Below, piece by piece: positions 846 through 30,147 of a stretch of 64,000 nucleotides of DNA. The stretch spans positions 608,001 through 672,000 of the forward strand of contig OY781089.1 in the NCBI GenBank assembly GCA_963676565.1. Reading direction: 5' to 3'. The notes beneath the pieces are model-generated. The model searched no databases. It saw nothing but the letters and a program-made list of their open reading frames with translations, and was not told the origin of the DNA. Positions within the stretch are counted from its first letter, which is position 1. Every line of letters begins with the position of its first letter. The position numbers and the translations under genes were made by a program. This DNA is from Halarcobacter sp. (GTDB lineage Bacteria; Campylobacterota; Campylobacteria; Campylobacterales; Arcobacteraceae).

Positions 846-897
846 TAAAAATCAAAATTTTACGTAAAGTTGCTAGAAAATTAAAAAAAGAAAAAGA

Positions 898-2643: not shown

Positions 2644-2651
2644 AATTTTCC

Positions 2652-3807: not shown

Positions 3808-3841
3808 TTTTTTCCTTTCATTTATAAAACGTTTTTGATAC

Positions 3842-3857
3842 TGTTTCACGTGAAACG
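3842..3857. promoter_or_regulatory. parS centromere-like site (15/16 match)
   Basis: TGTTTCACGTGAAACG versus consensus TGTTTCACGTGAAACA. Confidence 0.85.
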
Positions 3858-3900
3858 TTAGAAAACTAAATACTTTAGCTTATAACGTAAAAGTGTAATC

Positions 3901-4446: not shown

Positions 4447-5111
4447 TCACATTCCATAGTATAATTTGTAAATATAACAATATTTTCTTGTTTTGTGTCA
4501 GGTATGGGTATACTTTTATTTTTTATATCGCTTGTTGAATATATTTTTCCTGTATTTGCATTCATTAGTTGATTGTCTTTATCTATCTCAATATTTTTTA
4601 AGGCACAATTTCTACCTAAATCGTTTGATATATTTTTGATGTAATTTATCCCCCAATTTATTGCTTCTAATCTTAATAAATCAAAAGTCACATTGTAAGT
4701 ATCTTCTGGAACACTCCATGCTAGATTAGTTAATGAAATTTCAGTATCTCTATTTCTTTTAAGTTTTGTCAATTCTGAAATAAATTCATCCATGTAATTT
4801 GCTTTATATGAGTTAACTTTATATCTTAATTCACCAATATATCCAGATACTTTAGGTGTATTCATTGCATGCTTATATTTAGGCCTTATTGATAGGCTTA
4901 TGAATTTTTTTTCAACTTTATCAAACTGTTTTATTGTTTCATTAAACTTGTTTAATCTTTGCTCCAGTCTATATTGTTTTTTGTCATCAATAGTTATTCT
5001 AATGTTTGTTGTTAATGTGTCATGTGGAAGTTCATGTATAAATTTTTTTTCAAATTTTAACTCAAATGAGAAAAGAAAAATTGGAAGAACAAGTAGACTC
5101 AATAGTTTCAT
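4443..5111 (-). CDS. Exported SIMPL (DUF541)-like protein
   Basis: Signal peptide; SIRPKY...GYIG pattern and overall size. Confidence 0.55.
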   Translation of the reverse strand: MKLLSLLVLPIFLFSFELKFEKKFIHELPHDTLTTNIRITIDDKKQYRLEQRLNKFNETIKQFDKVEKKFISLSIRPKYKHAMNTPKVSGYIGELRYKVNSYKANYMDEFISELTKLKRNRDTEISLTNLAWSVPEDTYNVTFDLLRLEAINWGINYIKNISNDLGRNCALKNIEIDKDNQLMNANTGKIYSTSDIKNKSIPIPDTKQENIVIFTNYTMECE

Positions 5112-5112
5112 T

Positions 5113-5874
5113 TTATATCCTTACAGGTATATTGTTTTCCCTCAAATAGTGTTTTAATTCCATAATATCAATTTCTTTAAAATGGAAAATTGATGCAGCT
5201 AAGGCAGCACTTGCCCCATGAGTAAATGCTTCTTTCATATGTTCCATAGTTCCTGCTCCACCACTTGCAATTACAGGAATATCTACTAGTGACGAAATTT
5301 TTTCAGTAATATTTAGTTCAAAACCAGACTTAGCACCATCAGTGTCCATAGAAGTCAAAAGTATTTCACCTGCTCCTCTATCATAAACTTCTTTTGCCCA
5401 TTGTAAAGCATCAATTCCAGTATCCTCTCTACCACCTTTTACAAAAACGTGGTATGAGCCATCGTCAACTTTTTTTACATCAATTGCCACAACAATACAT
5501 TGACTTCCAAATCTTTTTGCGCCTTCATTGATAAAGTCTGGATTAACAACTGCTGAAGAGTTTACAGAAACTTTATCACAGCCTACATTAAGTAGTTTAT
5601 AGATGTCATCTAGCTTTCGTATACCTCCACCAACAGTTAATGGTATAAAGACCTCTTTAGCAACACTTTTGACTATATCAACTATAGTATCTCTATTTTC
5701 GTGGCTTGCAGTAATATCTAAAAAAGTAATCTCATCGGCACCTTCATTATTGTATCTTTTTGCAACTTCTACAGGATCTCCTGCATCTCTTAAACCTACA
5801 AAGTTTACACCCTTTACAACTCTACCATCTTTTACATCTAGACATGGGATAATTCTTTTTGCAAAATAACTCAA
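5113..5874 (-). CDS. hisF: Imidazole glycerol phosphate synthase cyclase subunit
   Basis: [26 protein letters not shown]. Confidence 0.98.
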
Positions 5875-5945
5875 ATTAGTTCCTTCATTTTTATGTAAAA
5901 ATCTTATCTAATTGTAAGTTAAAAGCAGATATACTCTTAATTCTT

Positions 5946-6746
5946 ATGGAAAAAGTTATAGCAAAAAAGAAATTTGGTCAAAATTTCTTAAAAGATCATA
6001 CCGTACTTAACAAGATCATCCAATCGATGCCCAATAACAATAATCATATTGTAGAAATAGGGCCTGGCTTAGGTGATTTGACAAAAAATTTAGTCAAGTA
6101 CAAAGACACGACTGCTTATGAAGTCGATACTGATTTAATCAGTATATTAAATTCTAAGTTTGCAAAAGAGATAGAAGAAAAGCGTTTTGAATTGATCCAC
6201 ACTGATGTTTTAGATGCTTGGGAGAAAAAAGGTAGTTTACATAATGGCAAATATGACTTAATTGCTAATTTACCTTACTATATTGCAACAAATATTATAT
6301 TAAGAGCATTTGAAGATGTTAACTGTGAAAATATAATTGTAATGATACAAAAAGAGGTGGCTGAAAAATTCTCTGCAAATGAGGGTGATAAAGAGTTCTC
6401 TTCCTTAAGTGTTATTACAAAAATGGTTTCAAAAGAGTGTAGGCTACTATTTGATGTACCTCCAGAATCTTTTGATCCGCCACCAAAAGTTACCTCTTCA
6501 ATTCTATATGTATCAAAAGATACTAGTGTAGAATTAGATAAAGACTTTATGAAGTTTTTGAAGGTTTGTTTTACACAACCTAGAAAGAAATTATCAAAAA
6601 ACCTTTTGTCGGTTATTGATAAAGAGTTTTTATCTAATATCTACAATGAACTTAATATAAAAGAGACTTTAAGACCTCATGAAGTAAGTGCGTCTTTGTA
6701 TAGCCAAATGTATACAAAGGTAAAGAATGGAAAACAACGAGGCTAA
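5946..6746 (+). CDS. rsmA: 16S rRNA dimethyladenosine transferase
   Basis: KKFGQNFL, EIGPGLG, ANLPYYI, PPPKVTS. Confidence 0.97.
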   Translation: MEKVIAKKKFGQNFLKDHTVLNKIIQSMPNNNNHIVEIGPGLGDLTKNLVKYKDTTAYEVDTDLISILNSKFAKEIEEKRFELIHTDVLDAWEKKGSLHNGKYDLIANLPYYIATNIILRAFEDVNCENIIVMIQKEVAEKFSANEGDKEFSSLSVITKMVSKECRLLFDVPPESFDPPPKVTSSILYVSKDTSVELDKDFMKFLKVCFTQPRKKLSKNLLSVIDKEFLSNIYNELNIKETLRPHEVSASLYSQMYTKVKNGKQRG

Positions 6747-8748
6747 AAATCAAGAAGATATAGCTAAAAAATCTGTTTCTTCAAACGAAGAAAAACCAAA
6801 ACAACAAAACAACAGAAGAAGACCTAGAAGTAATCAAGGAAATAAGCAAAACAGACAAGCTAATCCTAATACTACAAGTAATAATTCTTCTGAAGCAAAT
6901 AGTGAAAATCAAAATAAAACTACAAATTCTCAACAAAAAAGAAGAAGACCTAGTAATGGTAGTAGAGCAAAAACTCATCAGTCAAAAACAAACAGTACAT
7001 GGATTAATGACTTAAAAAAAGCTCATATCATCAATGAAAAATCTCATAAAGATAGATTAAATCCACACAATAAATTAAACCTTTCTACTAATGCAAAAGT
7101 TAGAATTACTCCATTGGGAGGATTAGGTGAAATTGGTGGAAATATGATGGTAATTGAAACTGAAAATTCTGCAATTATTGTTGATGTTGGTATGAGTTTC
7201 CCTGATGAAGATATGCATGGTGTCGATATTTTAATCCCAGATTTTACATATATTAGACAAATCAAAGATAAAATTGAAGCTGTTGTAATTACACATGGAC
7301 ATGAGGACCACATTGGTGCAATGCCTTATTTATATAAAGAATTACAGTTTCCAATTTATGGTACTTCACTACCATTAGAGATGATTGGTTCAAAATTTGA
7401 TGAACATAAAATAAAAGATCATAGAAAATTCTTTAGACCAGTAGAAAAAAGAGTTCCAATTAAAATTGGTGATTTTGAGATTGAATGGATTCATATTACT
7501 CACTCAATTATTGATGCTTCTTCATTAGCAATCAAAACAGAAGCGGGAACAATTATCCATACAGGTGACTTTAAAATTGACCATACTCCAATTGATGGTT
7601 TTCCAACAGATTTACATAGATTTGCTCATTATGGAGAGGAGGGTGTTTTATTATTAATGTCTGATTCAACTAACTCTCACTCACCAGGTTTTACTAAATC
7701 TGAAAAAACAGTTGGCCCTACTTTTGATAGATTATTTTCTACAGCTAAGGGTAGAGTTATTATGTCAACTTTCTCATCAAACATCCATAGAGTTGCACAG
7801 GCAATTGATCATGCTATGAAATATGGTAGAAAAGTTTGTGTTATTGGAAGATCAATGGAAAAAAACTTAGATTTAGCAATGAGTTTAGGTTATATTAAAT
7901 TTCCAAAAGATCAATTTATTGATGCTCACGAAGTTAATAAATATAAAGATAATGAAGTTTTAATTGTAACTACAGGTTCTCAAGGTGAATCTATGAGTGC
8001 TCTTTATAGAATGTCAATTCATGAACATAGACATATTAAAATTAAGCCAGGTGATCAAATTATCCTTTCTGCAAAAGCAATTCCTGGAAATGAAGCAAGT
8101 GTATCTCAAATAATCAACCACTTACTTAAAGCTGGTGCGCAAGTTGCTTATCAAGATTTTAGTGAAATTCACGTTTCTGGACATGCTGCACAAGAAGAGC
8201 AAAAATTAATGTTAAGATTAGTAAAACCTAAATTCTTTATGCCAATACATGGTGAATACAATCATGCAGTAAAACATGCAAAAACTGGTGTAGATTGCGG
8301 TGTTCTTGAAAGAAATACATATATTATGAGTGATGGTGAACAAGTTGAAGTTAGCCCAAAATATCTTAAAAAAGTTAAGTCAGTAAAAACAGGAAAAGTT
8401 TATATTGACAATCAATTAAACAACAAAATCTCAAATGATATTGTTATGGATAGACAAACTATGGCGAACGAAGGTGTTGTTATGATTGTTGCTCAAATTA
8501 ATGAAAATGATAGAAAAATGGAACAAAGACCAAGGGTTTCATCTTTTGGTTTAGTACCAGATAAGTTGGATAAACAATTTTCAAAAGAGATTGAAGATTT
8601 ATTATTAACTTTCTTAGAAAATGTAAAAGAGGGTATCTTCAAAAACAATAAAATTGTTGAAGATGAAATTAGAAAAGTTGTTAGAAAACATTGTGTTAGA
8701 AAATACAAAAAATACCCAGTGATAGTTCCAACGATTTTTGTTATATAA
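6727..8748 (+). CDS. rnj: Ribonuclease J with ~120-aa low-complexity N-terminal extension
   Basis: PLGGLGEIGGNM, THGHEDHIG, HTGDFK, HVSGHA. Confidence 0.97.
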   Translation: MENNEAKNQEDIAKKSVSSNEEKPKQQNNRRRPRSNQGNKQNRQANPNTTSNNSSEANSENQNKTTNSQQKRRRPSNGSRAKTHQSKTNSTWINDLKKAHIINEKSHKDRLNPHNKLNLSTNAKVRITPLGGLGEIGGNMMVIETENSAIIVDVGMSFPDEDMHGVDILIPDFTYIRQIKDKIEAVVITHGHEDHIGAMPYLYKELQFPIYGTSLPLEMIGSKFDEHKIKDHRKFFRPVEKRVPIKIGDFEIEWIHITHSIIDASSLAIKTEAGTIIHTGDFKIDHTPIDGFPTDLHRFAHYGEEGVLLLMSDSTNSHSPGFTKSEKTVGPTFDRLFSTAKGRVIMSTFSSNIHRVAQAIDHAMKYGRKVCVIGRSMEKNLDLAMSLGYIKFPKDQFIDAHEVNKYKDNEVLIVTTGSQGESMSALYRMSIHEHRHIKIKPGDQIILSAKAIPGNEASVSQIINHLLKAGAQVAYQDFSEIHVSGHAAQEEQKLMLRLVKPKFFMPIHGEYNHAVKHAKTGVDCGVLERNTYIMSDGEQVEVSPKYLKKVKSVKTGKVYIDNQLNNKISNDIVMDRQTMANEGVVMIVAQINENDRKMEQRPRVSSFGLVPDKLDKQFSKEIEDLLLTFLENVKEGIFKNNKIVEDEIRKVVRKHCVRKYKKYPVIVPTIFVI

Positions 8749-9736: not shown

Positions 9737-10534
9737 ATGAAAGGCAAAAATGAAGAGCAAGTTGAAGAAGAAACTAGATTAAATAAATTTATCTCTCATA
9801 ATAGTAATTATTCAAGAAGAGAAGCGGATAAGATAATAGAAGAGGGTAAAGTTTCGATTAATGGTACTCCTGTAAAAAATCTTGCGACAAAAGTTAAACC
9901 TGATGATATTGTAAGGATTGGCAAAAAGATTATCAAAGAAGATAAAAATAGAATGTATACAGTAATTATGTATAATAAGCCAAAAGGGGAACTTGTAACT
10001 AAAAATGACCCTCAAGGTAGAAAAGTTATCTTTGATTCTTTAGATAAAAAATATAAACACTTTATGCCAATTGGAAGACTTGATTATTCAAGTGAAGGTT
10101 TAATACTTTTAACAGATTCAGTTGATGTTGCTAATAAATTAATGCATTCAAAACTTGAGAGAATCTATAAAATAAAAGTAAATGGTGAAATCCATAAAAA
10201 AGTAGAAGAGGCAATGTTAAATGGCCTTGAACTTGAAGATGCAACAACAGGTGCCCATGAAAAATCAAAAATAAAATCGATGAATTTTGAGCCATTCATT
10301 GCATATCAAATTATCTCAAATAATAAAAATTTCTCTAAACTGAAAGTTGCAATTGCAGAAGGAAAGAATAGGGAGCTTAGAAGATTTTTTGGACATTTTG
10401 GTTTAGAAGTTATGGACTTAAAAAGGTTTGAGTTTGGTGGAATTTCACTAAACAATCTTCCTACAGGAAAATCAAGATATCTTACAAAAGATGAATATAA
10501 AGATTTAAGATTATTCCTAAACGAAAATGAATGA
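9737..10534 (+). CDS. rRNA pseudouridine synthase (RsuA/RluB family, S4 domain)
   Basis: SRREAD S4 motif; GRLDYSSEGL; EGKNRELRR. Confidence 0.92.
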   Translation: MKGKNEEQVEEETRLNKFISHNSNYSRREADKIIEEGKVSINGTPVKNLATKVKPDDIVRIGKKIIKEDKNRMYTVIMYNKPKGELVTKNDPQGRKVIFDSLDKKYKHFMPIGRLDYSSEGLILLTDSVDVANKLMHSKLERIYKIKVNGEIHKKVEEAMLNGLELEDATTGAHEKSKIKSMNFEPFIAYQIISNNKNFSKLKVAIAEGKNRELRRFFGHFGLEVMDLKRFEFGGISLNNLPTGKSRYLTKDEYKDLRLFLNENE

Positions 10535-11711
10535 TTTAGCTAACAAATTACGTCCACAAAATCTAAATGATTTTGTTGGGCAAACTCACATTATTGGAAA
10601 AAATAAAGCCCTTTATAAACTAATAGAAAAAAAAGAGATACCCCATCTGTTTTTTTATGGAAAACCAGGGACGGGAAAAACAACTCTTGCCAAAATTATT
10701 GCAAAACATATTGGAACTGATTATTACTACTTTAATGCAACAACTATTAAAATTGATGATTTAAGAAAGATTTTTACAAGATATAAAGATTCACTAATAA
10801 AACCAGTTATGTTTATTGATGAAGTACATCGACTTTCAAAAAACCAACAAGAAGTTTTACTTCCCATTATGGAAAATTATGAAGCAATAATTATAGGTGC
10901 CAGTACAGAAAATCCTTTTTTTACTTTAACAAGTGCAATTAGATCTAGGTCTTTTTTATATGAGTTTAAAGCCTTTACAAAAGAGGATATGAATAAGGTA
11001 TTAGACAAAGCAATTGCAAATACGCAAATAAAGATAAATGAAGAGGCTAGAGAGTACTTAATCTTATCAAGTAGTGGTGATGCTAGGGCTATGTTAAATC
11101 TTCTTAATTTTGCCATTAAAATTGATTTAGATGTAAAGTATGAAACATTGAAAGAATTAAGAGTAAATGTAATTGGTGATGGAGTTAGTTCTAAAGATTC
11201 TCACTACGATTTGGCAAGTGCAATGATAAAATCTCTTAGGGGTTCAGATGTCGATGCAGCATTATACTATTTAGCAAGATTGATTGATGGTGGAGAGAGT
11301 GTTGAATTTATTACAAGAAGGTTAGTGATTTTTGCTAGTGAAGATATTGGTAATGCAAATCCAAATGCACTAAATCTTGCAGTAAGTACAATGTTAGCAA
11401 CATCAAAGATTGGATACCCAGAAAGTAGAATTCTTTTAGGACAATGTGCAATATATTTAGCATCATGCCCTAAATCAAATTCTGCATATATGGGAATCAA
11501 TAAAGCACTTAATGAAGTAAAAAATGGTAAAATTTTGGATATACCAAAACATCTTGATAGTCAGCATGTTGGGTATTTGTATCCGCACGATTTCGGAGGA
11601 TGGGTAAAGCAAGAGTATTTGGCAAAGCCTTTAAGAATTTATGAATCGCTAAATGTAGGGTACGAAAAAACATTAAATGAGTGGCTTTTAAAAATTAAAG
11701 GTCAAGATTAA
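10527..11711 (+). CDS. rarA: Replication-associated recombination protein A (AAA+)
   Basis: GKPGTGKTT, FIDEVHR, IKSLRGSD, SEDIGNANP. Confidence 0.95.
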   Translation: MNDLANKLRPQNLNDFVGQTHIIGKNKALYKLIEKKEIPHLFFYGKPGTGKTTLAKIIAKHIGTDYYYFNATTIKIDDLRKIFTRYKDSLIKPVMFIDEVHRLSKNQQEVLLPIMENYEAIIIGASTENPFFTLTSAIRSRSFLYEFKAFTKEDMNKVLDKAIANTQIKINEEAREYLILSSSGDARAMLNLLNFAIKIDLDVKYETLKELRVNVIGDGVSSKDSHYDLASAMIKSLRGSDVDAALYYLARLIDGGESVEFITRRLVIFASEDIGNANPNALNLAVSTMLATSKIGYPESRILLGQCAIYLASCPKSNSAYMGINKALNEVKNGKILDIPKHLDSQHVGYLYPHDFGGWVKQEYLAKPLRIYESLNVGYEKTLNEWLLKIKGQD

Positions 11712-13734: not shown

Positions 13735-14664
13735 ATGAAAATCGTATTTTTAGACAGAAAAACAATTGGTTATGATATTGACATAAGTAAATTTGAAACT
13801 CTTGGTGATTTAACCATATATGACACTACAAATGAAGATGAGACTCTAGATAGAGTAAAAACTGCAGATATAGTAATTACTAACAAAGTAGTAATAGATA
13901 AAAAAATAATGGAAAATTCAAATTTAAAACTTATATGTATCACAGCTACAGGAACTGATAATATTGACCTTAAATTCGCAAAAGAAAAAGGTATAGTAGT
14001 AAAAAATGTTGCTGGCTATTCGACAGCTAGTGTATCTCAAGTAACTTTTGCTCATGTATTTCACTTTGTACAAAAGTTAAATTATTATATTGACTATGTT
14101 AAAAAAGGTAATTGGGGAGAGTCTGATATATTCACACATATAGACAAACCTTTTTACGAATTAAAAAACAAAAACTGGGGAATTATTGGTTTAGGTGAAA
14201 TTGGAACAAAAGTTGCAACTATAGCAAAAAGCTTTGGTTGTAATGTAAGTTACTATTCAACTTCAGGTAGGAATTCTAATACGGATTTTAAACAAAAAAG
14301 TTTAGAAGATTTATTAGAAGAATCAGACATAGTAACTATACATGCACCTTTAAATGATTCAACTTTTAATTTGATTAATAAATCTAATTTAAATTTGTTG
14401 AAAGATGGAGCAATTTTAGTAAATGTTGGTCGAGGTGGAATAATAAATGAAAAAGATTTAGCTGATGCTATAGATGGAGATAAAGTACTATTTTGTGGAC
14501 TTGATGTTGTGAGTAAGGAACCTATATTAAAAACTAATCCACTAAATTTTGTACAAAATAAAGATAGACTTATAATTACACCACATATAGCTTGGGGTTC
14601 AACAGAAGCAAGAAATAGAGTGATGAACTTAGTATTTGACAACATACAAGAATACATAGTATAA
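13735..14664 (+). CDS. D-2-hydroxyacid dehydrogenase
   Basis: GIIGLGEIG, NVGRGG, TPHIAW. Confidence 0.92.
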   Translation: MKIVFLDRKTIGYDIDISKFETLGDLTIYDTTNEDETLDRVKTADIVITNKVVIDKKIMENSNLKLICITATGTDNIDLKFAKEKGIVVKNVAGYSTASVSQVTFAHVFHFVQKLNYYIDYVKKGNWGESDIFTHIDKPFYELKNKNWGIIGLGEIGTKVATIAKSFGCNVSYYSTSGRNSNTDFKQKSLEDLLEESDIVTIHAPLNDSTFNLINKSNLNLLKDGAILVNVGRGGIINEKDLADAIDGDKVLFCGLDVVSKEPILKTNPLNFVQNKDRLIITPHIAWGSTEARNRVMNLVFDNIQEYIV

Positions 14665-20159: not shown

Positions 20160-20435
20160 TTATTTATTTTCGAGTTCAAAGTTAGAAATTTCTGATTCTG
20201 TAAGGTCTGAACCTTTATTTTTATTATTTTCAATTTCAAAACCATTTTCATCATAAGTTGCAGTATCAGTGTCAATATTTTGTGAGGCAGTTGGATGTGT
20301 TTGAATTTCATTTTCAATCATTAATGCTAAGTGATCCTTAGATTTTTCAATACTATTAACTATAAATAGATTAATACCAAGAAATAAAGAGATGGCAAGT
20401 ACAATGAATAAAGTAGTAATTTCAAAATATCTCAA
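20160..20435 (-). CDS. Small hypothetical membrane-anchored protein
   Basis: N-terminal hydrophobic segment; AAGGA SD before the TTG. Confidence 0.55.
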   Translation of the reverse strand: MRYFEITTLFIVLAISLFLGINLFIVNSIEKSKDHLALMIENEIQTHPTASQNIDTDTATYDENGFEIENNKNKGSDLTESEISNFELENK

Positions 20436-20545
20436 GTAAGTCCTTAGTAATAAATAAAGAAAATATTACGTATTATTGTTAAATTTTACTTAAAAGAAAA
20501 TATTATAAATATATAAATTTGTTATTAATAGATATTATATAAAGA

Positions 20546-20620
20546 TGGTGGTCGTAACTGGATTTGAACCAGTGACCACCACCATGTCAAGGTGGCACTC
20601 TACCACTGAGTTATACGACC
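20546..20620 (-). tRNA. trnV: tRNA-Val(GAC), integrase-proximal copy (att repeat)
   Basis: Cloverleaf GGTCGTA...CCACC-TTGACAT-GGTGG...TTCAAATC...TACGACC-ACCA with encoded CCA. Confidence 0.95.
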
Positions 20621-20654
20621 AGTTCGACGTTTGGTAGACTGTAAGTACTAAAGG

Positions 20655-20676
20655 TACACACAAACGATACACAAAA
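20655..20676 (+). repeat. 22-bp direct repeat, left copy; putative integrase arm-type site
   Basis: TACACACAAACGATACACAAAA, identical at 26849-26870. Confidence 0.8.
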
Positions 20677-20708
20677 GGGCTTCAAGAATAAACACTTGGA
20701 GTTATTTT

Positions 20709-21923
20709 ATGAGCACGACCCTATCATATTTGAAGTCATCAACTAATGGCTTTTTTAAGTATAGAAGAAGAACCCCTAAACTACTTGAAGAGATTATAGG
20801 TTCAAGAGAAGTAATTAAAGCCCTAGGAACAAATGAAACTCAAGCTATTACTAAAGCAATAAAACTTAATAACCTCATCAATGAAGCTGTTGAGTTAAGT
20901 AAGATACAGTCTATACCTAAAGAGACTATTATAGAGTTACTAAAGAGTGAACTAAAGTTAACCACAAAGAAAACAAAAGAACAGAAAAAGAAACTATCAT
21001 ATTTCATTAAGTTATATCTTGAGCAATCTAATGTGACAGATAAAGAGTATAGATATAGAGAGTATTTCTTTAATGAATACTTACCATTACTTATAGAGGT
21101 TTTATTCAAGAAAAGAGATTTAGATATAGAAGAACTTACTTACGACAAGCTCTTAAAGATAAGAACATTATTTATGAAGCTACCTAGTAGGAACTTTTAT
21201 AAGTATAGAGTTGTAAATCAACTAGAGTTAGTCTCAAAGGTCAATAAAGGGACTCTAAAGATAGCTAAAGAACATTTACTATCAGAAGATACAATAAACA
21301 AGAACCTAAAGAGGATAAAGTCACTACTATTTTTTGCAAAAGAACTTAATTGCTATAGTCATAACATACCTAAAACACTTGTAATCAATCGTAAAGGAGA
21401 TACCTCATCAAGAGGAGAGAAAGCAATACTAACAAAGGATGACCTAGAGATTGTCTTTAGTCACACTAATGATGACCTTAAGTACCTATATGAAGTATCT
21501 TATTACTCAGGGATGAGAAGGTCAGAGTTGTATAAATGTAATATAGTAGACTATGAAGGTGTCTTATGCTTTGACCTAAAGAACATTACAGAAAGACTAA
21601 AGACAAGTTCAAGTTATAGACTTATTCCTATCCATAGTAAGTTACTTTATAGAATAAATGAGTTTAAGGACATTATAGAGAATACTAAAGCTGGCTGGAT
21701 TAGTAATAGTTTTAGTAGATTAGTTAAGAGGTCATTTAAAGATACAAAAGGCAAGTCTTTATATTCACTAAGACATACATTTGCTACTAATCTTATAGCC
21801 AATAAAGTTAATCCTGAGGTTATATCTGAACTTATGGGACACTCACACTCTACAATGACTATGAGTAGATATGTTAAAGGTTACCCTATTGAAACCCTTA
21901 GAGAGGCTATAGAATGTCTATAG
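20709..21923 (+). CDS. Tyrosine recombinase/integrase with N-terminal arm-binding-like domain
   Basis: YSGMRRSE (R), LKT (K), YSLRHTFAT, LMGH, MSRY; N-terminal YRRRTP...KALGT. Confidence 0.95.
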   Translation: MSTTLSYLKSSTNGFFKYRRRTPKLLEEIIGSREVIKALGTNETQAITKAIKLNNLINEAVELSKIQSIPKETIIELLKSELKLTTKKTKEQKKKLSYFIKLYLEQSNVTDKEYRYREYFFNEYLPLLIEVLFKKRDLDIEELTYDKLLKIRTLFMKLPSRNFYKYRVVNQLELVSKVNKGTLKIAKEHLLSEDTINKNLKRIKSLLFFAKELNCYSHNIPKTLVINRKGDTSSRGEKAILTKDDLEIVFSHTNDDLKYLYEVSYYSGMRRSELYKCNIVDYEGVLCFDLKNITERLKTSSSYRLIPIHSKLLYRINEFKDIIENTKAGWISNSFSRLVKRSFKDTKGKSLYSLRHTFATNLIANKVNPEVISELMGHSHSTMTMSRYVKGYPIETLREAIECL

Positions 21924-21929
21924 TCTCTT
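21901..21929 (+). other. 13-bp RNA hairpin over the integrase stop codon
   Basis: AGAGGCTATAGA-ATG-TCTATAGTCTCT, with G.U pairs. Confidence 0.55.
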
Positions 21930-21985
21930 ATAGAGGTTAGGTTAATCAATGTCACTAAGACCAATAAAATACAAAGGATAAAACA

Positions 21986-22261
21986 ATGATGTATATTGAA
22001 TTAGAAAGTATAGGACAAATGTTAAGAGTTGTAGATGGTAGTCTATGTATTGGAAATGAGGATGGTGAAGGAGTTTATGTAGATGAGCTTAGAAGCTCTA
22101 AAGGTAGAGAAATATACAAAAAGGTTAGTGAGTTAGAAAAAGAGCTTGTAGGTGCCCTTACAGAGCTTAAAGATATTGCTATTGATAAGGTAAAAAGAAA
22201 TGAGTTAGAGGGAGTTATAGAAGGCTTAGAGGCAGACTTTAAGAGTCTAATTGATTTTTAA
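21986..22261 (+). CDS. Hypothetical phage-like protein (91 aa)
   Basis: AAAGGA SD; C-terminal amphipathic helix. Confidence 0.7.
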   Translation: MMYIELESIGQMLRVVDGSLCIGNEDGEGVYVDELRSSKGREIYKKVSELEKELVGALTELKDIAIDKVKRNELEGVIEGLEADFKSLIDF

Positions 22262-22302
22262 ATGAAAACATATATAATAATATTTATTTTTAAGGAGAAG
22301 AC

Positions 22303-22659
22303 TTGGACAAATATTTAAGTATTGTACTTCCAATATTATCTGCATTAGTTATTTATTATACCTTCACTAAAAATAATGAAAATGAGGATAATAAAATATT
22401 AATCACAGAGTTTAATGGGCAAAAAGTTATTTTAGCTAACTGGAGTAAAGATAAATATATAAGAAGTGGCTATTATAAAGGACATTGTTATGTTTTTCCT
22501 ATTGAACATAAAGTGACATATCAATATGTAAATACAGAATATAAAGATTTACTAGCAAAAGAAAATATGATTGGACTAAAAGAAAGTAGTAGAGATTGTT
22601 TTTCTAGAGTTAGATTATTATATGATAAACCTAACGAACTAAAACCTATGAAGTTTTAA
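22303..22659 (+). CDS. Hypothetical N-terminally membrane-anchored protein (118 aa)
   Basis: AAGGAG SD with TTG start; one hydrophobic segment; more AT-rich than its neighbours. Confidence 0.65.
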   Translation: MDKYLSIVLPILSALVIYYTFTKNNENEDNKILITEFNGQKVILANWSKDKYIRSGYYKGHCYVFPIEHKVTYQYVNTEYKDLLAKENMIGLKESSRDCFSRVRLLYDKPNELKPMKF

Positions 22660-22701
22660 CTTCTAAGATAACTGTTCAGTTCAAAGCTTATCTACTTACT
22701 T

Positions 22702-22743
22702 AAAGAAAAGAGGTCTGTAAGTCCACTTTACAGCTCTTCTTTT
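22702..22743 (+). terminator. Hairpin with T tract upstream of the tandem promoter-like motifs
   Basis: AAAAGAG..CTGTAA-GTCCACT-TTACAG-CTCTTCTTTT. Confidence 0.5.
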
Positions 22744-22810
22744 AATTTACCCTAATACTTTTATTACCTAACAACTAAAAAGCCTTGTAGCCTCCTCACA
22801 GAATATTTAT

Positions 22811-22904
22811 TAAAGATAACGACCTATAGGAGAGGACTTAATTTAGCAATCTCAGCAAATCCCTTAATTAAGGCTTTTTCTTAAGAGTGCCACCTATAGG
22901 AGGA
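22811..22904 (+). promoter_or_regulatory. Tandem T7-like phage RNA polymerase promoter-like motifs
   Basis: ACCTATAGGAG at 22822 and 22892 (70 bp apart), each preceded by a TTAA AT-rich block. Confidence 0.5.
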
Positions 22905-22974
22905 AAACCAAGAATGGACACTCTAGGAATAAACTATCTAAAAACTAAAATCAAAATCATAAAAGGAGGTTCAG

Positions 22975-23454
22975 ATGAACAACAATCAAACACAACTAAA
23001 AGAAGTTGTAATGTTTACTGATGGCTCTTGTTTAGATAATGGTAGAAATGGAACTGGAGGATACTGTGCATTACTACAGACACCAAACAAGAAACATCAA
23101 AAGATAATTAAAGGTAGTGAGTTAGATACTACGAACAATCGTATGGAGATAACAGCTATCATAGAAGGGCTTAAGGCAATTAAAAAGCCTTCTAAAGTTA
23201 CAGTTTATAGTGACTCAAACATCACTGTAAGAGCTATTAATGAATGGCTTGAAAGATGGATAAGGAAGAACTTTAGGAAGGTTGCTAATGTTGACCTTTG
23301 GAAAGAGTATTTAGAGGTATCAGCTAAACATCAAGTTAAGGCTATATGGGTTAAAGCTCATAGTGGTATTTATGAGAATGAACTTGTAGATGATATAGCT
23401 AGAAGTGAGGCTATGAAGTTGCATGGCAAGAGAGGTATTCATTATGGGTACTAA
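22975..23454 (+). CDS. Ribonuclease HI (element-borne)
   Basis: FTDGSC, TTNNRME, YSDS, NVDLW, WVKAHSG, NELVD; AGGAGG SD. Confidence 0.95.
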   Translation: MNNNQTQLKEVVMFTDGSCLDNGRNGTGGYCALLQTPNKKHQKIIKGSELDTTNNRMEITAIIEGLKAIKKPSKVTVYSDSNITVRAINEWLERWIRKNFRKVANVDLWKEYLEVSAKHQVKAIWVKAHSGIYENELVDDIARSEAMKLHGKRGIHYGY

Positions 23455-24694
23455 GATTACTATAATTGATGGAGTATGTGGCTCAGGAAAGAGTCAAGGT
23501 ATTATAAAACAAATGAAAGAACAAAGCTATAAGAAGTGGATTTGTTTTACTCAGTTCATTAGTGAATGTCATAGATACGCTGGAACTCAACCTATATCTA
23601 AGAAGAATGATGAACCAAAGAGAAGGAAAGATGGAACTTTAATCTATGATGAACCATCAGAGTTTAACTGTTCAGAGCTAGAGTTCAAACATCCACTGAG
23701 AAAAGGTAGAGGTCAGAAGAAAGAGGACTTAATAGAACTCCTTAAACAAAGAGAAAACATAGTTACAACCCATCAAATGCTTACAAACATAGGTTCAGAT
23801 GTACAAGAGTTAATCTCTGAGTTGTCTTATGTAGCTGTACTTGATGAAGTTGTAGACCCTATACAAGAGTATAAGATTACATCAAACAACAAAAAGGAAC
23901 TCTTTGAGCATGAGTATGTCTATCTATCTGATGATGGAGTGACCTTATGTTGGAACTATGAGAAATACCCTGATAGAAAGAAGGGAGATAACTTCTACAA
24001 AGAGAAACAGTTGATTGATAGTGGAAACTTAATCCTTTTAGATGGTAGTATTTATCTGTGGGAAATGTCAGAGAGTCTCTTCAACTCATTTACAGAGGTT
24101 TACATACTTACATATCAGTTTGAAGGTTCTCCATTGATGTGGTTCTTTAAAGCTAAAGGGATAAAGTATGAAGTACACTATAAACCTAAAGCTAATGTAA
24201 AGTATGGAGACCTAATCAATATCATTGAAGATGAAAGACTAAACTCTATTGGAGATAGTCCCAACTTCTTATCTTCAAACCGAACTAGAAAGTTATCTCA
24301 AGGAGAAATAAGAGACCTTAAAGCTAATCTAAACCATCTAAGAAAAAGAGTATGGAATGATGGGGAAGATAGAATGTGGACTTGTTTAGGTAGTGCTAAA
24401 GATGACTTAGGTGTTAATGGGTGGAAGAAAGGATTTGTACCATTCAACATTAGGGGCTCTAATGACTATAGACAAGTTAAGAACTGTGCTTACTTGTTCA
24501 ATGTATTTCTAAACCCAAACATCACTAAGTACTTTAGTAAGTATGATGTGACAGTTGATGAAGATACTTATGCTCTTAACAGTTTACTTCAATGGTTGTT
24601 TAGGTCTAGGCTAAGAGATGGTAAGTCAGTTAGTGTCTATATCCCCTCAAAGAGGATGAGGGAACTACTTAAAGAGTGGTGTAGACATAACTAA
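23444..24694 (+). CDS. Compact SF2-like P-loop helicase/replication protein; probable start 23444
   Basis: Walker A DGVCGSGKS, VTTH, Walker B VLDEV, ILTY, motif VI-like QWLFRSRLR; overlaps the RNase H stop. Confidence 0.7.
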   Translation: MGTKITIIDGVCGSGKSQGIIKQMKEQSYKKWICFTQFISECHRYAGTQPISKKNDEPKRRKDGTLIYDEPSEFNCSELEFKHPLRKGRGQKKEDLIELLKQRENIVTTHQMLTNIGSDVQELISELSYVAVLDEVVDPIQEYKITSNNKKELFEHEYVYLSDDGVTLCWNYEKYPDRKKGDNFYKEKQLIDSGNLILLDGSIYLWEMSESLFNSFTEVYILTYQFEGSPLMWFFKAKGIKYEVHYKPKANVKYGDLINIIEDERLNSIGDSPNFLSSNRTRKLSQGEIRDLKANLNHLRKRVWNDGEDRMWTCLGSAKDDLGVNGWKKGFVPFNIRGSNDYRQVKNCAYLFNVFLNPNITKYFSKYDVTVDEDTYALNSLLQWLFRSRLRDGKSVSVYIPSKRMRELLKEWCRHN

Positions 24695-24701
24695 AACTAC
24701 T

Positions 24702-25000
24702 AATGGACACAAAGTGTGAAGCTAAAAGTGTCCAATATGAAAGTTAAACCCCTATTGATGGTATCTACAGAGGTTTATCTGTAAAGAACAACAATCTTAA
24801 ATACTTTAAGTAGAGACTAACGGATAACTTTACTTGATGGTTAATCTAGATGACCTATAAATTAATTAATATAGAAATGAGTTTAGGTTAAAGGTATAGT
24901 AGTCCTAAATGTAGCGCTATAACTAGACCTTAATCTCATTTCTAAACAATCATAAGCTTAGAGTCAATACTTAAGAGATGACTATAGATTGACTTTAAGT
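24702..25000 (+). other. Structured non-coding region (inverted repeat and two long hairpins); candidate origin or RNA element
   Basis: TGGACAC/GTGTCCA 24704-24734; stems 24872-24944 and 24956-25000. Confidence 0.45.
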
Positions 25001-25059
25001 AACTACTTCACTACGTGTGTCTTTTATACTATCTATTCTATTTCTTAATATTAATTCAT

Positions 25060-25899
25060 TTAATCCTCTAAAGTCTTTTTTTGTCTATATTTAGAAATTA
25101 ATATAGTTGCGACTATTGAACTTCCAACTCCTAAAATAAAACTTAATGCATTTTGTAATAGTATGTCATACCAAGATTGTGATTTAATAGCCTCTTTAAA
25201 AGACTCAATTTGTTGTTCAGTAAGCTTTTCTAATTCTTTTGCCTTATTATATTCTTGTTCAATTATTTTCTTTGCTTTTTGTGTTTTCTGCATATCTTCT
25301 TTAATATCATTTAGTTGAACCTCTAAGTCTTTTAGATTTCCTATTGCAAGTTCTACATTTTGTATTTTTTTCTCTAAAGTTGGTTTTTGGATTTTTAAAG
25401 TAAAAGAAAATAATAAAAGTAAAACTGAAATAATTGATACAAAAGAAGAAATAGTTAATATTCTATTTTGTGTTAAAGAACGTTTTTTTGCTACTTTAAT
25501 CTGTTTAATATTTATTTTATCATTTTTAGTTAAAGTAATAAGTTCTTCTACATCTACTATCTTTATTTTTGCAATTGATAAAGCATTCTTTTCAACTTCC
25601 TTTTTTAATAAATCATCAGCTCTTTTTGTTAATTTTCCTGATGTTATCAATATAAAAACTTTAATTTTAGGAGTAAGTGAAAGTAACTTAAAAAAGATTT
25701 TAATATAATCAATATCAATACTCTTATGATGTTTAATTTCTATAGCAACTGTTCCATTATTTGCAATTAAGTCAAAACTGCCATCTAAGTTATACTCATA
25801 ATTATAAACATCAGGAGCAATATTTTTAATATTACTTAAACAAAAATCTTCAAACTCTTCTCCAGTTAATGCATATAAATCTTCTTTTGTGTATTTCAT
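25060..25899 (-). CDS. Mrr-like PD-(D/E)xK endonuclease domain + TM + coiled coil + TM (putative defence cargo)
   Basis: GEEFEDF, DGSFD, IEIK, ILITSGKLT, IKIVDVEEL; two hydrophobic segments flanking a heptad-rich region; own TATAAT and GGAG SD. Confidence 0.7.
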   Translation of the reverse strand: MKYTKEDLYALTGEEFEDFCLSNIKNIAPDVYNYEYNLDGSFDLIANNGTVAIEIKHHKSIDIDYIKIFFKLLSLTPKIKVFILITSGKLTKRADDLLKKEVEKNALSIAKIKIVDVEELITLTKNDKINIKQIKVAKKRSLTQNRILTISSFVSIISVLLLLFSFTLKIQKPTLEKKIQNVELAIGNLKDLEVQLNDIKEDMQKTQKAKKIIEQEYNKAKELEKLTEQQIESFKEAIKSQSWYDILLQNALSFILGVGSSIVATILISKYRQKKTLED

Positions 25900-26112
25900 T
25901 TATTCTCCAATTATAACTATAAGTATTATAACTTTTAGACTCTTAATAATTTATACTTTATTTTAAGATTATTGTAGCGAAGAGGCTCCTATAAGTGACA
26001 CCATAGAGACACTTATGACACAGTTGAAGATGACTGGAACTGTTCAAGAAACTCATGTGTGAGTGATTACAGTAGCTCTTATAGTAGTACAAGTGATTTC
26101 TAGGAGGTGACT

Positions 26113-26346
26113 ATGAAAATATTAGAGATTGTAGATAAAAAGATAGCTGAACTTGAAGCAGAAGTTAAATACTTTGAGGAGTCATTTGAAGGATGGCATG
26201 AAGAGATTGAGAAGGAAGGTTACCCTATTGCTGGAGATTTCTTTGGTCATTCTGATGACTGCTTTGATATGGGTATAGAGTATGGTGAAGGTCTAAAAGC
26301 TAGAGAGACTTTAACGTTTTTGAAGAAACTTAGAGGAGGTGAATAA
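26113..26346 (+). CDS. Hypothetical acidic phage-like protein; probable ATG start at 26113
   Basis: AGGAGG SD; TAATG coupling to the next gene. Confidence 0.65.
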   Translation: MKILEIVDKKIAELEAEVKYFEESFEGWHEEIEKEGYPIAGDFFGHSDDCFDMGIEYGEGLKARETLTFLKKLRGGE

Positions 26347-26813
26347 TGGAGTTAATTAAAGTAGATATTAGTGAAGAAGTTGTAGTAGAGGTTCAGCCAC
26401 ACGAAGAGCATGAATGGTTGTTGTCAAGTAAAGATGTGGCTGAGGGTTATGGTTTGAGTGCTAGTGGTTTGAGAATGACTAAAAAGAGATACTCAGATGA
26501 ACTAGAAGAAGGTGTACATTTTATCAATGTCACAAATAGTGATATTGGTGGCAGACCCTCAGTTTATTGGACTAAAGAAGGTGTAGTAATGTTAGGGTTC
26601 TTCATTAAGACACCTACAGCTAAAGAGTTTAGAAGATGGGCTTCAAACTTTATTGTTGAGAAGAGTAAAGAACCAAAAGCTCCAGCTGTACCTCAGACAT
26701 ACCTAGAGGCACTTCAAGCTCACTTAGAGTCAGTACAACAACTTGAAGAGGCTAATAAGGTAATTGCTTTACAAAAAATAGTAAAAATATCTGAAAGGAC
26801 ATATACGTATTAG
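26346..26813 (+). CDS. Phage antirepressor-like DNA-binding protein (ORF6N/BRO-N-like), apparently lacking its C-terminal domain
   Basis: DVAEGYG, ELEEGVHF, WTKEGVVMLGFFIKTPTAKEFRRWA, linker PQTYLEAL. Confidence 0.7.
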   Translation: MELIKVDISEEVVVEVQPHEEHEWLLSSKDVAEGYGLSASGLRMTKKRYSDELEEGVHFINVTNSDIGGRPSVYWTKEGVVMLGFFIKTPTAKEFRRWASNFIVEKSKEPKAPAVPQTYLEALQAHLESVQQLEEANKVIALQKIVKISERTYTY

Positions 26814-26848
26814 AGCAGATTAATTTTCCCCCGTAGGGTATCAAAAGA

Positions 26849-26900
26849 TACACACAAACGATACACAAAAATGCAAAAGGTACACAAAAAAGTGTGTATC
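26849..26900. repeat. Right-hand cluster of putative integrase arm-type sites
   Basis: 22-bp repeat copy, an extra GGTACACAAAA (26879) and an inverted GTGTGTATC (26892). Confidence 0.75.
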
Positions 26901-26993
26901 ATTCAGCTATAATTAAGTTTTTGTTAAGATTGTAAATGTTAAAGTTTTGGACTTGAAAGTCCTATTTGAAGGTATCTAGGAGTCAATCTTAAG

Positions 26994-27068
26994 TGGTGGT
27001 CGTAACTGGATTTGAACCAGTGACCACCACCATGTCAAGGTGGCACTCTACCACTGAGTTATACGACC
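26994..27068 (-). tRNA. trnV: tRNA-Val(GAC), copy retaining the host upstream region
   Basis: Identical to 20546-20620; -10-like GATAAT upstream at 27082-27087 (minus strand). Confidence 0.95.
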
Positions 27069-27097
27069 AAAAGAGTGAAATATTATCTTATTAGAAC

Positions 27098-27400
27098 TTA
27101 AATACTTAAATCATGCAGTTCACTAAATAAAAAAGCTTCTACAATCTCATCAATACTTCTTTGTTTTGGCGCAACTAAAATTGCAATACCTTCTTCTTGG
27201 AATTGCCATACATATTCAGCATCATTGATTACAACTACTGTTTCAACGAAAGCTTGAATATCATTTCTATCCTTATAAAACTTACAACTTGAAATTTGTC
27301 CTTCATCTAACTCTACAAAAGCCCAATATGATGACACGTCAAGTGTTGTAATAATAGCTTCGTGCCTTTTATTACTATCAACAGGGATTAATAAATTCAT
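27098..27400 (-). CDS. Hypothetical protein, possibly NifX/NifB-like fold
   Basis: LLIPVD N-terminus, size and AAAGGA SD; fold assignment is weak. Confidence 0.5.
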   Translation of the reverse strand: MNLLIPVDSNKRHEAIITTLDVSSYWAFVELDEGQISSCKFYKDRNDIQAFVETVVVINDAEYVWQFQEEGIAILVAPKQRSIDEIVEAFLFSELHDLSI

Positions 27401-27445
27401 GCATCTATCCTTTCAACGTTAGATATTATATAGTTTTAAGACTTA

Positions 27446-29227
27446 TTAAAAAATATAATTCTTTTTGTACCAAATTGAAAAAATAAATAAACTCCATAAA
27501 TGTTGTTTAAATTTTTTATTTTTAGATAAATTATAGATTTGTTTTATGTATTCATCATTGAATAAGCCAGTTTCTTTGTTAACAAGTAAAATAGTATCTA
27601 AAATAGAATCTTTATATTCTTCATGAATCCATTCATTAAAAGGGGAATTAAAACCCTTTTTAGTTCTATGAATGATTTTTTCAGGTATATATTTAGATGC
27701 AATTTTTTTAAGAAGATATTTATTAGTATCTCCCACTTTTATTTTTGAATCAATTGAAAAAACTAAATCAACTAATCTATAGTCTAGAAATGGCGTTCTA
27801 AGCTCTAAAGAGTTGTTCATTGATATTCTATCAACTTTACTTAGTAAAGCCTCTCCTAGCCATATTTTTAAGTCTATATAGCTCATCCAATCAACGGGGT
27901 CTTTTTTAGGATTTTCAGATTTAAATGTAGGAACTTTATTAAATAACCTTTTTTTCTGTGAATCTGAAAAAATTTCACCAAAAGAGTTATATAGGGTTTG
28001 TTTTTTTACTATTCTTCTTAAATATTCACTCTCTTTAGTATTATTTTGTAAGGCACCAATTATGGAGTTTAAAAAATCATTTTGACCACTACTTAAAGTT
28101 TTTTCAAAATCATAATATCTTAAAAACTTTGCATAATTATCATAACCTAAAAAAAGTTCATCGCTTCCTTCTCCACTTAAAACTGTTTTTATTCCCATCT
28201 TATGGATTTTATTAGTTAAAATATTCAATGGAATTGCAGCACTATCACCATGGGGTTGTTCTAAAGCTAGTAAAGTGTTTTCAAAATACTCTATAAAATC
28301 ATTCTTTGAAATAGTTACAGGATGGTGATTAGAGTTGATGTGTTCAGCTGTAATTTTAGCAAAATTAAGTTCACAATAGTTTTTATATTCATCATATCCA
28401 ATTGAAAAGGTATTGATTTTCTTATTTGTAATTTTTGAATAAAGTGCAGAGATTAAAGAGCTATCAATTCCACCACTTAATAAACTTCCAACCTCTACAT
28501 CAGAAACCAGTCTTGATTCAACACATTTGAAAAGAAGTTCCTCAATGGAAACTAAAGCTTCATCTTCTGTTTTTATTCTTTTGTATGTATTGATTTTATA
28601 ATACTTCTTCATTGAGATTGTATTATTCTTTAAAATCATATATGTAGAGTTTTCTAAGGCATTAATCCCTTGATAAAAACTATTTTCACCTAAAGGGACA
28701 AAATATTGTAAATATTGAGATAAGGCTACTTTATTTAATTTTGGAGTTGTTCCAAGTATATTTATAATAGATTTGATTGAACTTGAAAAAATGAAACTTC
28801 TCCCATCAAAGTGGTAGAAAAAAGGTTTTTTCCCATATCTATCCCTAGCACAAAAATACTTATCCTCTTTTATATCGTAAATACAAAAGCTAAACATTCC
28901 ATTTATTTTATTTAAAAATTTCTCTTGGTATTTTTGATAGAGTCTAATCAAAACCTCTGTATCTGAAGCAGTTTTAACTTCTAGATTTTCCTCTTTTATA
29001 AGCTCTTTATAGTTATATATTTCACCATTAAAAACAATTAATATATCGTCAAAAACCATAGGTTGATTTGCTTCATTGTCTAAATCAATTATTGATAATC
29101 TTGTATGACCAAAAAGTTTATCATCTACTTGAACTTTTTTATTAAAATCAGGACCTCTATTATTTAAGTTCTCTAAAGCTTTATCAAAATTTGATGAAAG
29201 GAAGTTACAACCTAATATACCACACAT
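27446..29227 (-). CDS. asnB: Asparagine synthase (glutamine-hydrolysing) family amidotransferase
   Basis: MCGI, RGPD, HTRLSIID, FNGEIYN, LSGGIDSS, SGEGSDE. Confidence 0.93.
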   Translation of the reverse strand: MCGILGCNFLSSNFDKALENLNNRGPDFNKKVQVDDKLFGHTRLSIIDLDNEANQPMVFDDILIVFNGEIYNYKELIKEENLEVKTASDTEVLIRLYQKYQEKFLNKINGMFSFCIYDIKEDKYFCARDRYGKKPFFYHFDGRSFIFSSSIKSIINILGTTPKLNKVALSQYLQYFVPLGENSFYQGINALENSTYMILKNNTISMKKYYKINTYKRIKTEDEALVSIEELLFKCVESRLVSDVEVGSLLSGGIDSSLISALYSKITNKKINTFSIGYDEYKNYCELNFAKITAEHINSNHHPVTISKNDFIEYFENTLLALEQPHGDSAAIPLNILTNKIHKMGIKTVLSGEGSDELFLGYDNYAKFLRYYDFEKTLSSGQNDFLNSIIGALQNNTKESEYLRRIVKKQTLYNSFGEIFSDSQKKRLFNKVPTFKSENPKKDPVDWMSYIDLKIWLGEALLSKVDRISMNNSLELRTPFLDYRLVDLVFSIDSKIKVGDTNKYLLKKIASKYIPEKIIHRTKKGFNSPFNEWIHEEYKDSILDTILLVNKETGLFNDEYIKQIYNLSKNKKFKQHLWSLFIFSIWYKKNYIF

Positions 29228-29229
29228 TT

Positions 29230-30147
29230 TTATAGTCCGAAAAAGTTATGAATTATAAGAATATAGATATAAATAAAAGCAACAAATACAGCAGAACTAA
29301 TTAAAACAGAAAATGTTGTATCTATTGGTTTACAATTGTATAAAGCTGACAGATTTACATTATTTACAGCTAAAGGTACAAGAAGTTCTAAAAAGATAAT
29401 TGCGCCAATAAATGGCTCTACATCAAATAGGAAAATTACATAAATACCAACTAAAGGAAGAACTATATGTTTAAATAAAGAGATATTTAATGCCAATTTC
29501 CAGTTTGCACTTCTAATTTTTACTTGGGACATAAATATCCCAAAAATTACTAATTGCATTACAATTGCTGCATAAGCACCCATAGTAAAAAATTTATCAA
29601 ACTCTTCACTTAATGTAAAACCAAAGTGGTTAAAGGCTAAAGCAATTATTGTTACATGAATGGCAGGGATTTTAAAAACCTCTTTTAAGGCATCAATAAA
29701 TCTAAATTTATCTCCAGCAAAAAAGTATACAGAGAAGATATAGATAAAAAATACATTTGCAATATTTAAAATAGAAGTATAAGGAACTGACGCAACTCCA
29801 AATAAAGCAATTCCTAAAGGAATCCCAAGATTTCCAGTATTCCCAACTAAAGATACTGCTCTGAAAATAGATCTATCTTGAACTTCGGTTTTAAAAATAA
29901 TTCTTGAATAAAAAAGTGCTAAGGCTAAGGTTATAAATATTACTACAAAATATATAAGTGGTGATAGTATAAATTGTTCATTAATAGGAGCTCTAGTTAA
30001 ACCCCAAAAAATAAGTATTGGTTGTAAAAAGTATAAGTTTAATAAAACAATCGTTTTTTCATTTACTTGCTCTTTGTATACAAGTTTAAAAATAAAACCT
30101 ATAATAATAAATAAATAGATTGTTGCTACTGAGATTAGTGTTTCGAT
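29230..30147 (-). CDS. AEC (auxin efflux carrier) family transporter, 305 aa, apparent ATC start
   Basis: Frame stays open 188 codons upstream of the tracked ATG and includes GNTGNLGIPL; AAAGGA SD 6 nt before ATC; in-frame stop just upstream. Confidence 0.8.
   Translation of the reverse strand: METLISVATIYLFIIIGFIFKLVYKEQVNEKTIVLLNLYFLQPILIFWGLTRAPINEQFILSPLIYFVVIFITLALALFYSRIIFKTEVQDRSIFRAVSLVGNTGNLGIPLGIALFGVASVPYTSILNIANVFFIYIFSVYFFAGDKFRFIDALKEVFKIPAIHVTIIALAFNHFGFTLSEEFDKFFTMGAYAAIVMQLVIFGIFMSQVKIRSANWKLALNISLFKHIVLPLVGIYVIFLFDVEPFIGAIIFLELLVPLAVNNVNLSALYNCKPIDTTFSVLISSAVFVAFIYIYILIIHNFFGL

Follow-up and report, generated by a model that had tools for sequence, protein, structure and literature searches.

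Why should a small mobile element be wholly free of two short palindromes, GATC and RAATTY, that the surrounding DNA contains? The question is raised by a stretch of 64,000 nucleotides from Halarcobacter sp. (contig OY781089.1 of assembly GCA_963676565.1, positions 608,001 to 672,000; "the window" throughout), in which a 6.37-kb integrative element lies between two identical tRNA-Val(GAC) genes that form a 76-bp perfect direct repeat. An earlier note on this DNA had reported both words as missing from the element and had ascribed their absence to selection during horizontal transfer, probably in virions. Both words were found to be absent from the element without exception; their loss runs through synonymous codons, is symmetric with respect to strand and is seen again in five elements, in modules that are unrelated. 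We consider it fairly probable that the element, small and probably carried by phage, avoids restriction sites, with higher confidence for the GATC part and lower confidence for the part that concerns AATT-core words and GAWTC.

A void of GATC and RAATTY beyond compositional expectation

Exact counting over the element interior gave zero for both words, compared to 69 GATC and 198 RAATTY sites in the whole window, and thereby bore out what had been claimed from a manual scan. The flank was, as had also been stated, rich in both words, with 12 GATC and 31 RAATTY sites (4.8 RAATTY per kb) at positions 1-6500. The stretch free of RAATTY extends over 6777 bp (20515..27292) and the one free of GATC over 9537 bp (20333..29870), the latter overrunning the element on the right by approximately 2.9 kb into host DNA.

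A composition-corrected expectation was obtained by shuffling synonymous codons within each of the eight open reading frames (ORFs) of the element, keeping the protein and the codon usage of each gene fixed (5055 of 6372 nt shuffled, n = 3000). The shuffled sequences contained 11.6 ± 2.3 RAATTY sites (minimum 3) and 14.2 ± 2.9 GATC sites (minimum 5), and the observed zero was reached in 0 of 3000 shuffles for either word; the void is thus still beyond chance once composition is corrected for. In the same test TGCA, GANTC, TTAA and CATG were not depleted, and AATT overall was low (30 observed, 63.8 expected). Applied to 2729 host ORFs, the shuffle returned ratios of 0.73 for RAATTY and 0.44 for GATC. 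The host is itself GATC-poor; for RAATTY its chromosome has a normal density, 3.44 per kb. Among 33,343 genome windows of element length, 58 lacked RAATTY and 119 lacked GATC, and the joint void of the two words was the longest of the 3.34-Mb genome, exceeding the next one by a factor of 3.4 (6777 bp vs 1967 bp).

A single longer RAATTY void was encountered, outside the window (G000:C1:1909671-1925027). It coincides with one ORF of 5118 aa, probably encoding a repetitive giant protein, that has 8 sites against 52.8 by shuffle; as this ORF contains 39 GATC sites, it was rejected as a case of the same phenomenon.

The avoided words and the codon route of their loss

The avoided set is wider than first reported, including VAATTB and GAWTC besides RAATTY and GATC. 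VAATTB has two sites in the element and GAWTC none, where the flank rate would give 14.7 GAWTC sites and the shuffle 5.4. The earlier statement that GANTC is not avoided therefore holds for one half of that motif: the element has 11 GANTC sites, every one of them GASTC, and it is the GAWTC form that is missing.

To place these words on a common scale, the codon-shuffle expectation was multiplied by the host ratio of the same word, using the coding sequence of three elements (16.9 kb). Against these host-corrected expectations we observed 0 RAATTY (30.2 expected), 7 VAATTB (65.9), 1 GATC (17.9) and 4 GAWTC (22.8), and TCGA was borderline with 0 observed and 8.1 expected. The procedure replaced two motif rankings that were discarded, one by Poisson p against host rates, which was swamped by general differences in A/T runs, and one by uncorrected shuffle ratios, which was swamped by CpG words. 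The avoidance is absolute for RAATTY and about five-fold for the other VAATTB words, and AATT preceded by T or followed by A occurs at a host-like level. Members of the set that are not palindromic were low in both orientations (AAATTC 0 and GAATTT 0; AAATTG 1 and CAATTT 1; GAATC 4 and GATTC 0), which argues for recognition of double-stranded DNA.

The codon route of the loss is visible at individual dipeptides in the three elements. Lys-Phe is encoded as AAG-TTY in 14 of 14 cases, compared to 71% AAA-TTY in the host, and Glu-Phe as GAG-TTY in 15 of 15, where the host has 45% GAA-TTY. Asp-Pro is GAC-CCT in all five instances (host 61% GAT-CCN), and Asp before a CTN leucine is GAC in 12 of 12. 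With synonymous codon choice as its route, the selection that had been proposed earlier acts on the DNA words themselves, and the trait is present in five elements, unrelated sequence included.

Related elements share the trait

Four relatives, each bounded by its own direct repeats, were delimited. L014 is found in genome G105 with tRNA-Val as attachment (att) site, L002 in a metagenome-assembled genome (MAG) of H. ebronensis at the 3' part of another tRNA, L095 on a metagenome contig at the same site as L002, and L001 in an Arcobacter sp. MAG at tRNA-Arg. Sizes across the family range from 5.4 to 8.5 kb; the integrases differ, three members (L001, L002 and L095) encode a serine recombinase, and the cargo genes differ as well. 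No Arcobacteraceae plasmid was among the matches listed for the serine recombinase.

RAATTY was absent from all five interiors (35.2 kb in total, three att sites), whereas the flank rates predict 27 sites in the window element, 16 in L014, 17 in L002, 29 in L001 and 46 in L095. For GATC the corresponding expectations were 7.3, 1.9, 3.7, 2.9 and 0.0, with no site in the first four and one in L095. The trait also holds where the elements are not alike: sequence dissimilar to the window element and mutually, amounting to 5719, 2735 and 1683 nt, contained 0 RAATTY against 19.6, 9.4 and 5.8 at the genome rate.

The marker of the family, judged from sequence, is a YonV-type ATPase that is probably a replication protein. 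In it the GSGKT and LDEVV motifs are conserved, and YonV_C clusters with DEAD/ResIII in Atlas; when the YonV alignment was run against PDB sequences, only spurious PPR matches came back, and these were set aside. The nearest YonV relatives are those of the H. ebronensis and Arcobacter sp. MAGs, the proteins being 94–97% identical in other species, and a match at E <= 1e-20 was found in only 4 of 183 other family genomes. No void was seen at distant YonV loci of Clostridia and Bacteroidales, nor in L011, a 37% relative from a different genus of Arcobacteraceae, which has 8 RAATTY in 4 kb. The locus of a 60% relative (L096) has 4 RAATTY and 0 GATC on a 3-kb contig, which is too short to judge the trait. 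In L002 the YonV gene is broken into two parts (10013-11235) and the integrase is short (279 aa, 6305-7144), which may reflect decay or an assembly error; this copy still has 0 RAATTY and 0 GATC.

Residual sites and the cargo gene

On the opposite strand the window element carries a cargo gene of 23% GC, which had been said to contain AATT in other contexts only; it was indeed found to have 11 AATT and 0 RAATTY. The further claim that even the cargo had been purged stands as far as the zero counts for RAATTY and GATC go. Taken alone these zeros are weak, since the shuffle expects 3.1 RAATTY and 2.8 GATC in this gene, or approximately 2.3 and 1.2 after host correction, and it is in the cargo that the residual sites cluster. 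Both VAATTB sites of the window element lie within this gene, and across the five elements 12 of 16 residual sites of the avoided set fall in opposite-strand cargo ORFs, which make up 13.9% of the sequence (VAATTB 8 of 9, GATC 1 of 1, GAWTC 3 of 6). This distribution suggests that cargo was acquired later and purged last.

The cargo protein itself may be a membrane-anchored Mrr-like nuclease, an assignment that we treat as a lead. It scored 0.96 to "Restriction endonuclease, Mrr_cat" in Atlas, and by eye a D..ExK pattern near the N-terminus is followed by long helices. There was no Pfam match at E <= 5, PF04471 included, and with a pLDDT (predicted local distance difference test) of 49 the structure model was too poor for a confident nuclease fold, so neither Pfam nor the model confirms the assignment. 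No homologue of the gene was found in the 183 other family genomes.

Restriction and methylation systems in the host and its family

The earlier note had framed the RAATTY void in terms of CtsM, the Campylobacter methylase. This frame did not hold, since the host belongs to Arcobacteraceae and not to Campylobacter, its genome has no D12 (CtsM/Dam-class) methylase, and RAATTY is undepleted in 28 sampled family chromosomes. Genes of the EcoRI-methylase and DpnII families are likewise missing from the host genome, and the G105 genome also lacks a D12 methylase. The sole PF02086 match of the host (23.2 bits) was rejected as a D12 methylase, being a TrmA tRNA methylase (PF05958, E=1.9e-135). In the wider family, D12 methylases were found in 68 of 184 Arcobacteraceae genomes (6 of 24 in the host genus), and nucleases of the DpnII, DpnI and MutH/Sau3AI-like families in 17, 8 and 10 of the 184, respectively. 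GATC stands at 0.04–0.54 of Markov expectation in 25 of the 28 chromosomes (sampled loci L126-L165), the three exceptions being samples with 33–42% GC.

In five of six loci examined, a D12 adenine methylase was translationally coupled to a protein of approximately 405 aa with DUF6996, DUF6997 and DUF7226 (L109, at G106:C2:566834-570565, L110, L111, L112 and L119). From its gene content this operon is a candidate restriction-modification system; the G106 copy adjoins an integrase. Of the 184 family genomes, 10 encode DUF6997. In the host, a DUF6997 gene follows a DndB-like gene with no adjoining methylase (L210 4652-6843, G000:C1:762651-764842), a pair that may represent a defence island.

Weighing restriction-site avoidance against its rivals

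If restriction on entry is the selective force, the process can be outlined as follows. Small size and phage-type regulators suggest that the elements enter cells as double-stranded DNA in virions. Each transfer would then deliver DNA whose methylation is mismatched to the new host, any site on the incoming DNA would be a potentially lethal cut, and site-free variants would win, with newly captured cargo the last to be purged. For GATC, the agents would be nucleases of the DpnII, DpnI and Sau3AI/MutH types, all present in Arcobacteraceae. DpnII-type enzymes cut unmethylated sites and DpnI-type enzymes cut methylated ones; if both methylation states are attacked in this way, only loss of the site is safe. 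GATC avoidance is common to hosts and element, and the gene surveys offer plausible agents for it within the family. The words themselves match Type II specificities, MboI/DpnII for GATC, ApoI for RAATTY and TfiI for GAWTC.

Several observations weigh against this explanation. The host genome and its genus lack all three GATC nuclease families (0 of 24 genomes for each). In the 28 sampled chromosomes RAATTY (0.88–1.12) and GAWTC (0.62–1.76) are undepleted, and the EcoRI and MunI families were each found in 0 of 184 genomes in a search whose controls were also silent. Other mobile DNA might be expected to bear the mark of a general restriction barrier as well, and neither RAATTY nor GAWTC was depleted around six other integrase genes of the host genome or in three secondary replicons of 101–189 kb from three genomes. 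We know of no single enzyme specificity that would cover VAATTB with TAATTN and NAATTA tolerated. AAAA and AAAT, at 0.74, show a milder general depletion of A-tracts, so that the composition of the elements differs for other reasons too. Finally, the five elements are kin with a shared core, and pooled p-values therefore overstate the evidence.

The confinement of the AATT-core and GAWTC avoidance to this element family, with nothing comparable in the 28 chromosomes, six islands and three secondary replicons, would be expected if the words were cut sites of a nuclease that the element alone meets, for example a host-DNA-degrading or anti-satellite endonuclease of a helper phage; site-free copies of the element would then survive helper infection and be packaged. 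The phage-type regulators (Bro-N and Rha-like) and the lack of transfer genes of its own fit such a dependence. If this were true, the element would be a nuclease-proof satellite whose sequence predicts where an undiscovered phage enzyme cuts. Among 34 viral contigs (1 + 33) that encode Bro-N/Rha relatives, no helper was recognised: at 31–55% GC, none is Arcobacter-like in composition and none avoids RAATTY. Another 80 viral contigs carry YonV relatives, at 26–38% identity. Several palindromes would moreover demand several nucleases or one of loose specificity, and the GATC part is already accounted for by host systems; we consider a helper nuclease unlikely. In a variant of the main reading the sign of methylation would be the opposite one: adenine methylases of donors would mark the words, and methyl-dependent restriction in recipients (Type IV, DpnI- or Mrr-like) would select against methylatable sites. 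The family does encode D12 adenine methylases and DpnI-family nucleases at the frequencies given above, and RAATTY is a D12 methylase target in C. jejuni (PMC4294202). The present host and G105 have no such methylase. To our knowledge, no methyl-dependent enzyme acts on RAATTY or GAWTC, and we regard this alternative, too, as doubtful.

A passive origin, in which the modules came from a donor lineage poor in these words and the void is a relic, has the codon usage of the element in its favour, which is unlike that of the host (Lys AAG 37% vs 12%, Glu GAG 43% vs 26%, Asp GAC 22% vs 12%); long A/T runs are also rarer, with WWWWWW at approximately 0.55 of the host rate. Against it, the shuffles retain the codon usage of each gene and still expect RAATTY and GATC in the numbers given above. 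None of the 28 family chromosomes is RAATTY-poor, unrelated integrases, recombinases and cargo genes all show the trait, and the clustering of residual sites in cargo is what ongoing purging predicts. Inherited composition thus appears improbable. Lowest of all we rank the view that rigid A-tract/AATT DNA is shunned because a nucleoid or silencing protein binds it, the element thereby staying expressed, which seems very improbable. AAAA, AAAT and AATT are depleted, TTAA is not, TATA is not under-represented relative to the genome rate, and AATT flanked by TpA steps is tolerated, all of which such a mechanism could accommodate. It leaves GATC and GAWTC unexplained, and AAATTA, which contains a 5-bp A-tract, stands at 0.97; no silencer of this kind is known to us from the phylum.

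Relation to known systems

Phages and small plasmids are well known to avoid palindromes, and the avoidance seen in the present element resembles theirs in that Type II-like palindromes are missing beyond composition, that the loss is synonymous and that it is strongest in a small element. The carrier here differs, being a tRNA-integrating island of 5.4–8.5 kb, and for the strongest motif no cognate enzyme was found in the family in the EcoRI and MunI search described above, nor does any other sampled replicon or island share its avoidance. What is unusual is the completeness of the purge, together with the fact that neither a matching agent nor matching avoidance was found elsewhere in the clade.

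CtsM is a D12 methylase that marks RA(m6)ATTY and licenses the uptake of methylated DNA in Campylobacter jejuni (PMC10046745, PMC4294202). The six-base word is identical and the phylum the same; the host here differs in having no D12 methylase and a chromosome with RAATTY at its normal density. The assumption that Campylobacter CtsM accounts for RAATTY avoidance is thereby corrected for this case.

In size and content the element is reminiscent of PICMI and VEIME, small marine phage satellites of approximately 6 kb (PMC10803314, PMC9618062). Shared features are the size, the marine hosts, a gene set of integrase, a handful of regulators and a single replication-type gene, and the lack of capsid and packaging genes. 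PICMIs are located beside fis in Vibrionaceae, with AlpA and a primase among their genes. The present family differs in its location in tRNA genes of Arcobacteraceae (tRNA-Val, tRNA-Arg or another tRNA) and in its RNase H and YonV-type ATPase; no AlpA or primase family was detected in any ORF of the element or its relatives in Pfam and PHROG scans, and the defining features of PICMIs are thus not found.

The locus is a clear and quantified example of restriction words being purged from a very small integrative element, in a discernible order: the core is clean and the cargo comes last. It also delimits a small group of elements that insert into tRNA genes of Arcobacteraceae and are organised around RNase H and the YonV-type ATPase. 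Restriction-site avoidance predicts that hosts or phages of this clade possess an enzyme acting on AATT-core words (RAATTY, CAATTG-like) and on GAWTC, although the survey of known enzyme families turned up none for it in the clade.

Organisation, insertion site and mobility of the element

The features of the window element are collected below, together with the subterminal repeats of two relatives. Neither transfer genes in the element family nor anything T7-like among the element proteins was found in the Pfam/PHROG and PHROG scans, respectively.

Table 1. Features of the Halarcobacter sp. element and its boundaries (window coordinates unless a relative is named).
Feature	Position	Strand	Evidence or remark
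tRNA-Val(GAC), left att repeat copy	20546..20621	-	ARAGORN; Rfam tRNA 73.2 bits; 76 nt 100% identical to 26994-27069
Element interior	20622..26993	.	0 RAATTY, 0 GATC, 0 GAWTC, 2 VAATTB
27-nt subterminal repeat, left	20650..20676	+	96% identical to 26844-26870
Tyrosine integrase, 404 aa	20709..21923	+	PF00589 E=3.2e-12; phrog_1 integrase E=3.4e-30
Small conserved ORF, 91 aa	21986..22261	+	blastn 72-94% to L001, L002, L014, L095; no Pfam/PHROG family
118-aa ORF, no assigned function	22303..22659	+	Replaced by a serine recombinase upstream of RNase H in L001, L002, L095
RNase H, 159 aa	22975..23454	+	PF00075 E=2.7e-37
YonV-family SF2 (superfamily 2) helicase-like ATPase, 423 aa	23423..24694	+	phrog_2467 E=2.5e-62; PF27199 on homologues
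Cargo gene, 279 aa, 23% GC	25060..25899	-	Opposite strand; VAATTB at 25206 and 25572
79-aa ORF, no assigned function	26107..26346	+	Pfam, PHROG scans
Bro-N/anti-repressor-like phage regulator, 155 aa	26346..26813	+	PF02498 E=3e-4 (below cut-off); phrog_23341 E=4.7e-18; phrog_63 Ant E=9.1e-11
27-nt subterminal repeat, right	26844..26870	+	96% identical to left copy
tRNA-Val(GAC), right att repeat copy	26994..27069	-	ARAGORN; Rfam tRNA; 76-bp repeat
L002 subterminal repeats	5874-5893 and 13781-13800		Just inside both ends
L095 subterminal repeats	113-132 and 8388-8407		Just inside both ends

Three congeners (G106, G086 and G104) have one tRNA-Val with the flanks directly joined, that is, an empty site, and the interval is therefore a clean 6.37-kb insertion. 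A contig from run X5, whose species label matches that of the probable source, likewise joins the flanks over one tRNA copy (558 bases aligned, 1 mismatch), and the same run contains identical pieces of the right part of the element. This shows a presence/absence polymorphism among near-identical strains, not induction. Together with the perfect repeats, these empty sites substantiate the description of the interval as an active element in so far as it is a real mobile unit. The 94–97% identical YonV proteins of other species likewise speak for mobility.

The word ACAAA(A)CGATACACA is common to the subterminal repeats of the window element, L002 and L095, which have different integrases, and these repeats may be candidate arm-type sites for a recombinase or sites for a regulator.

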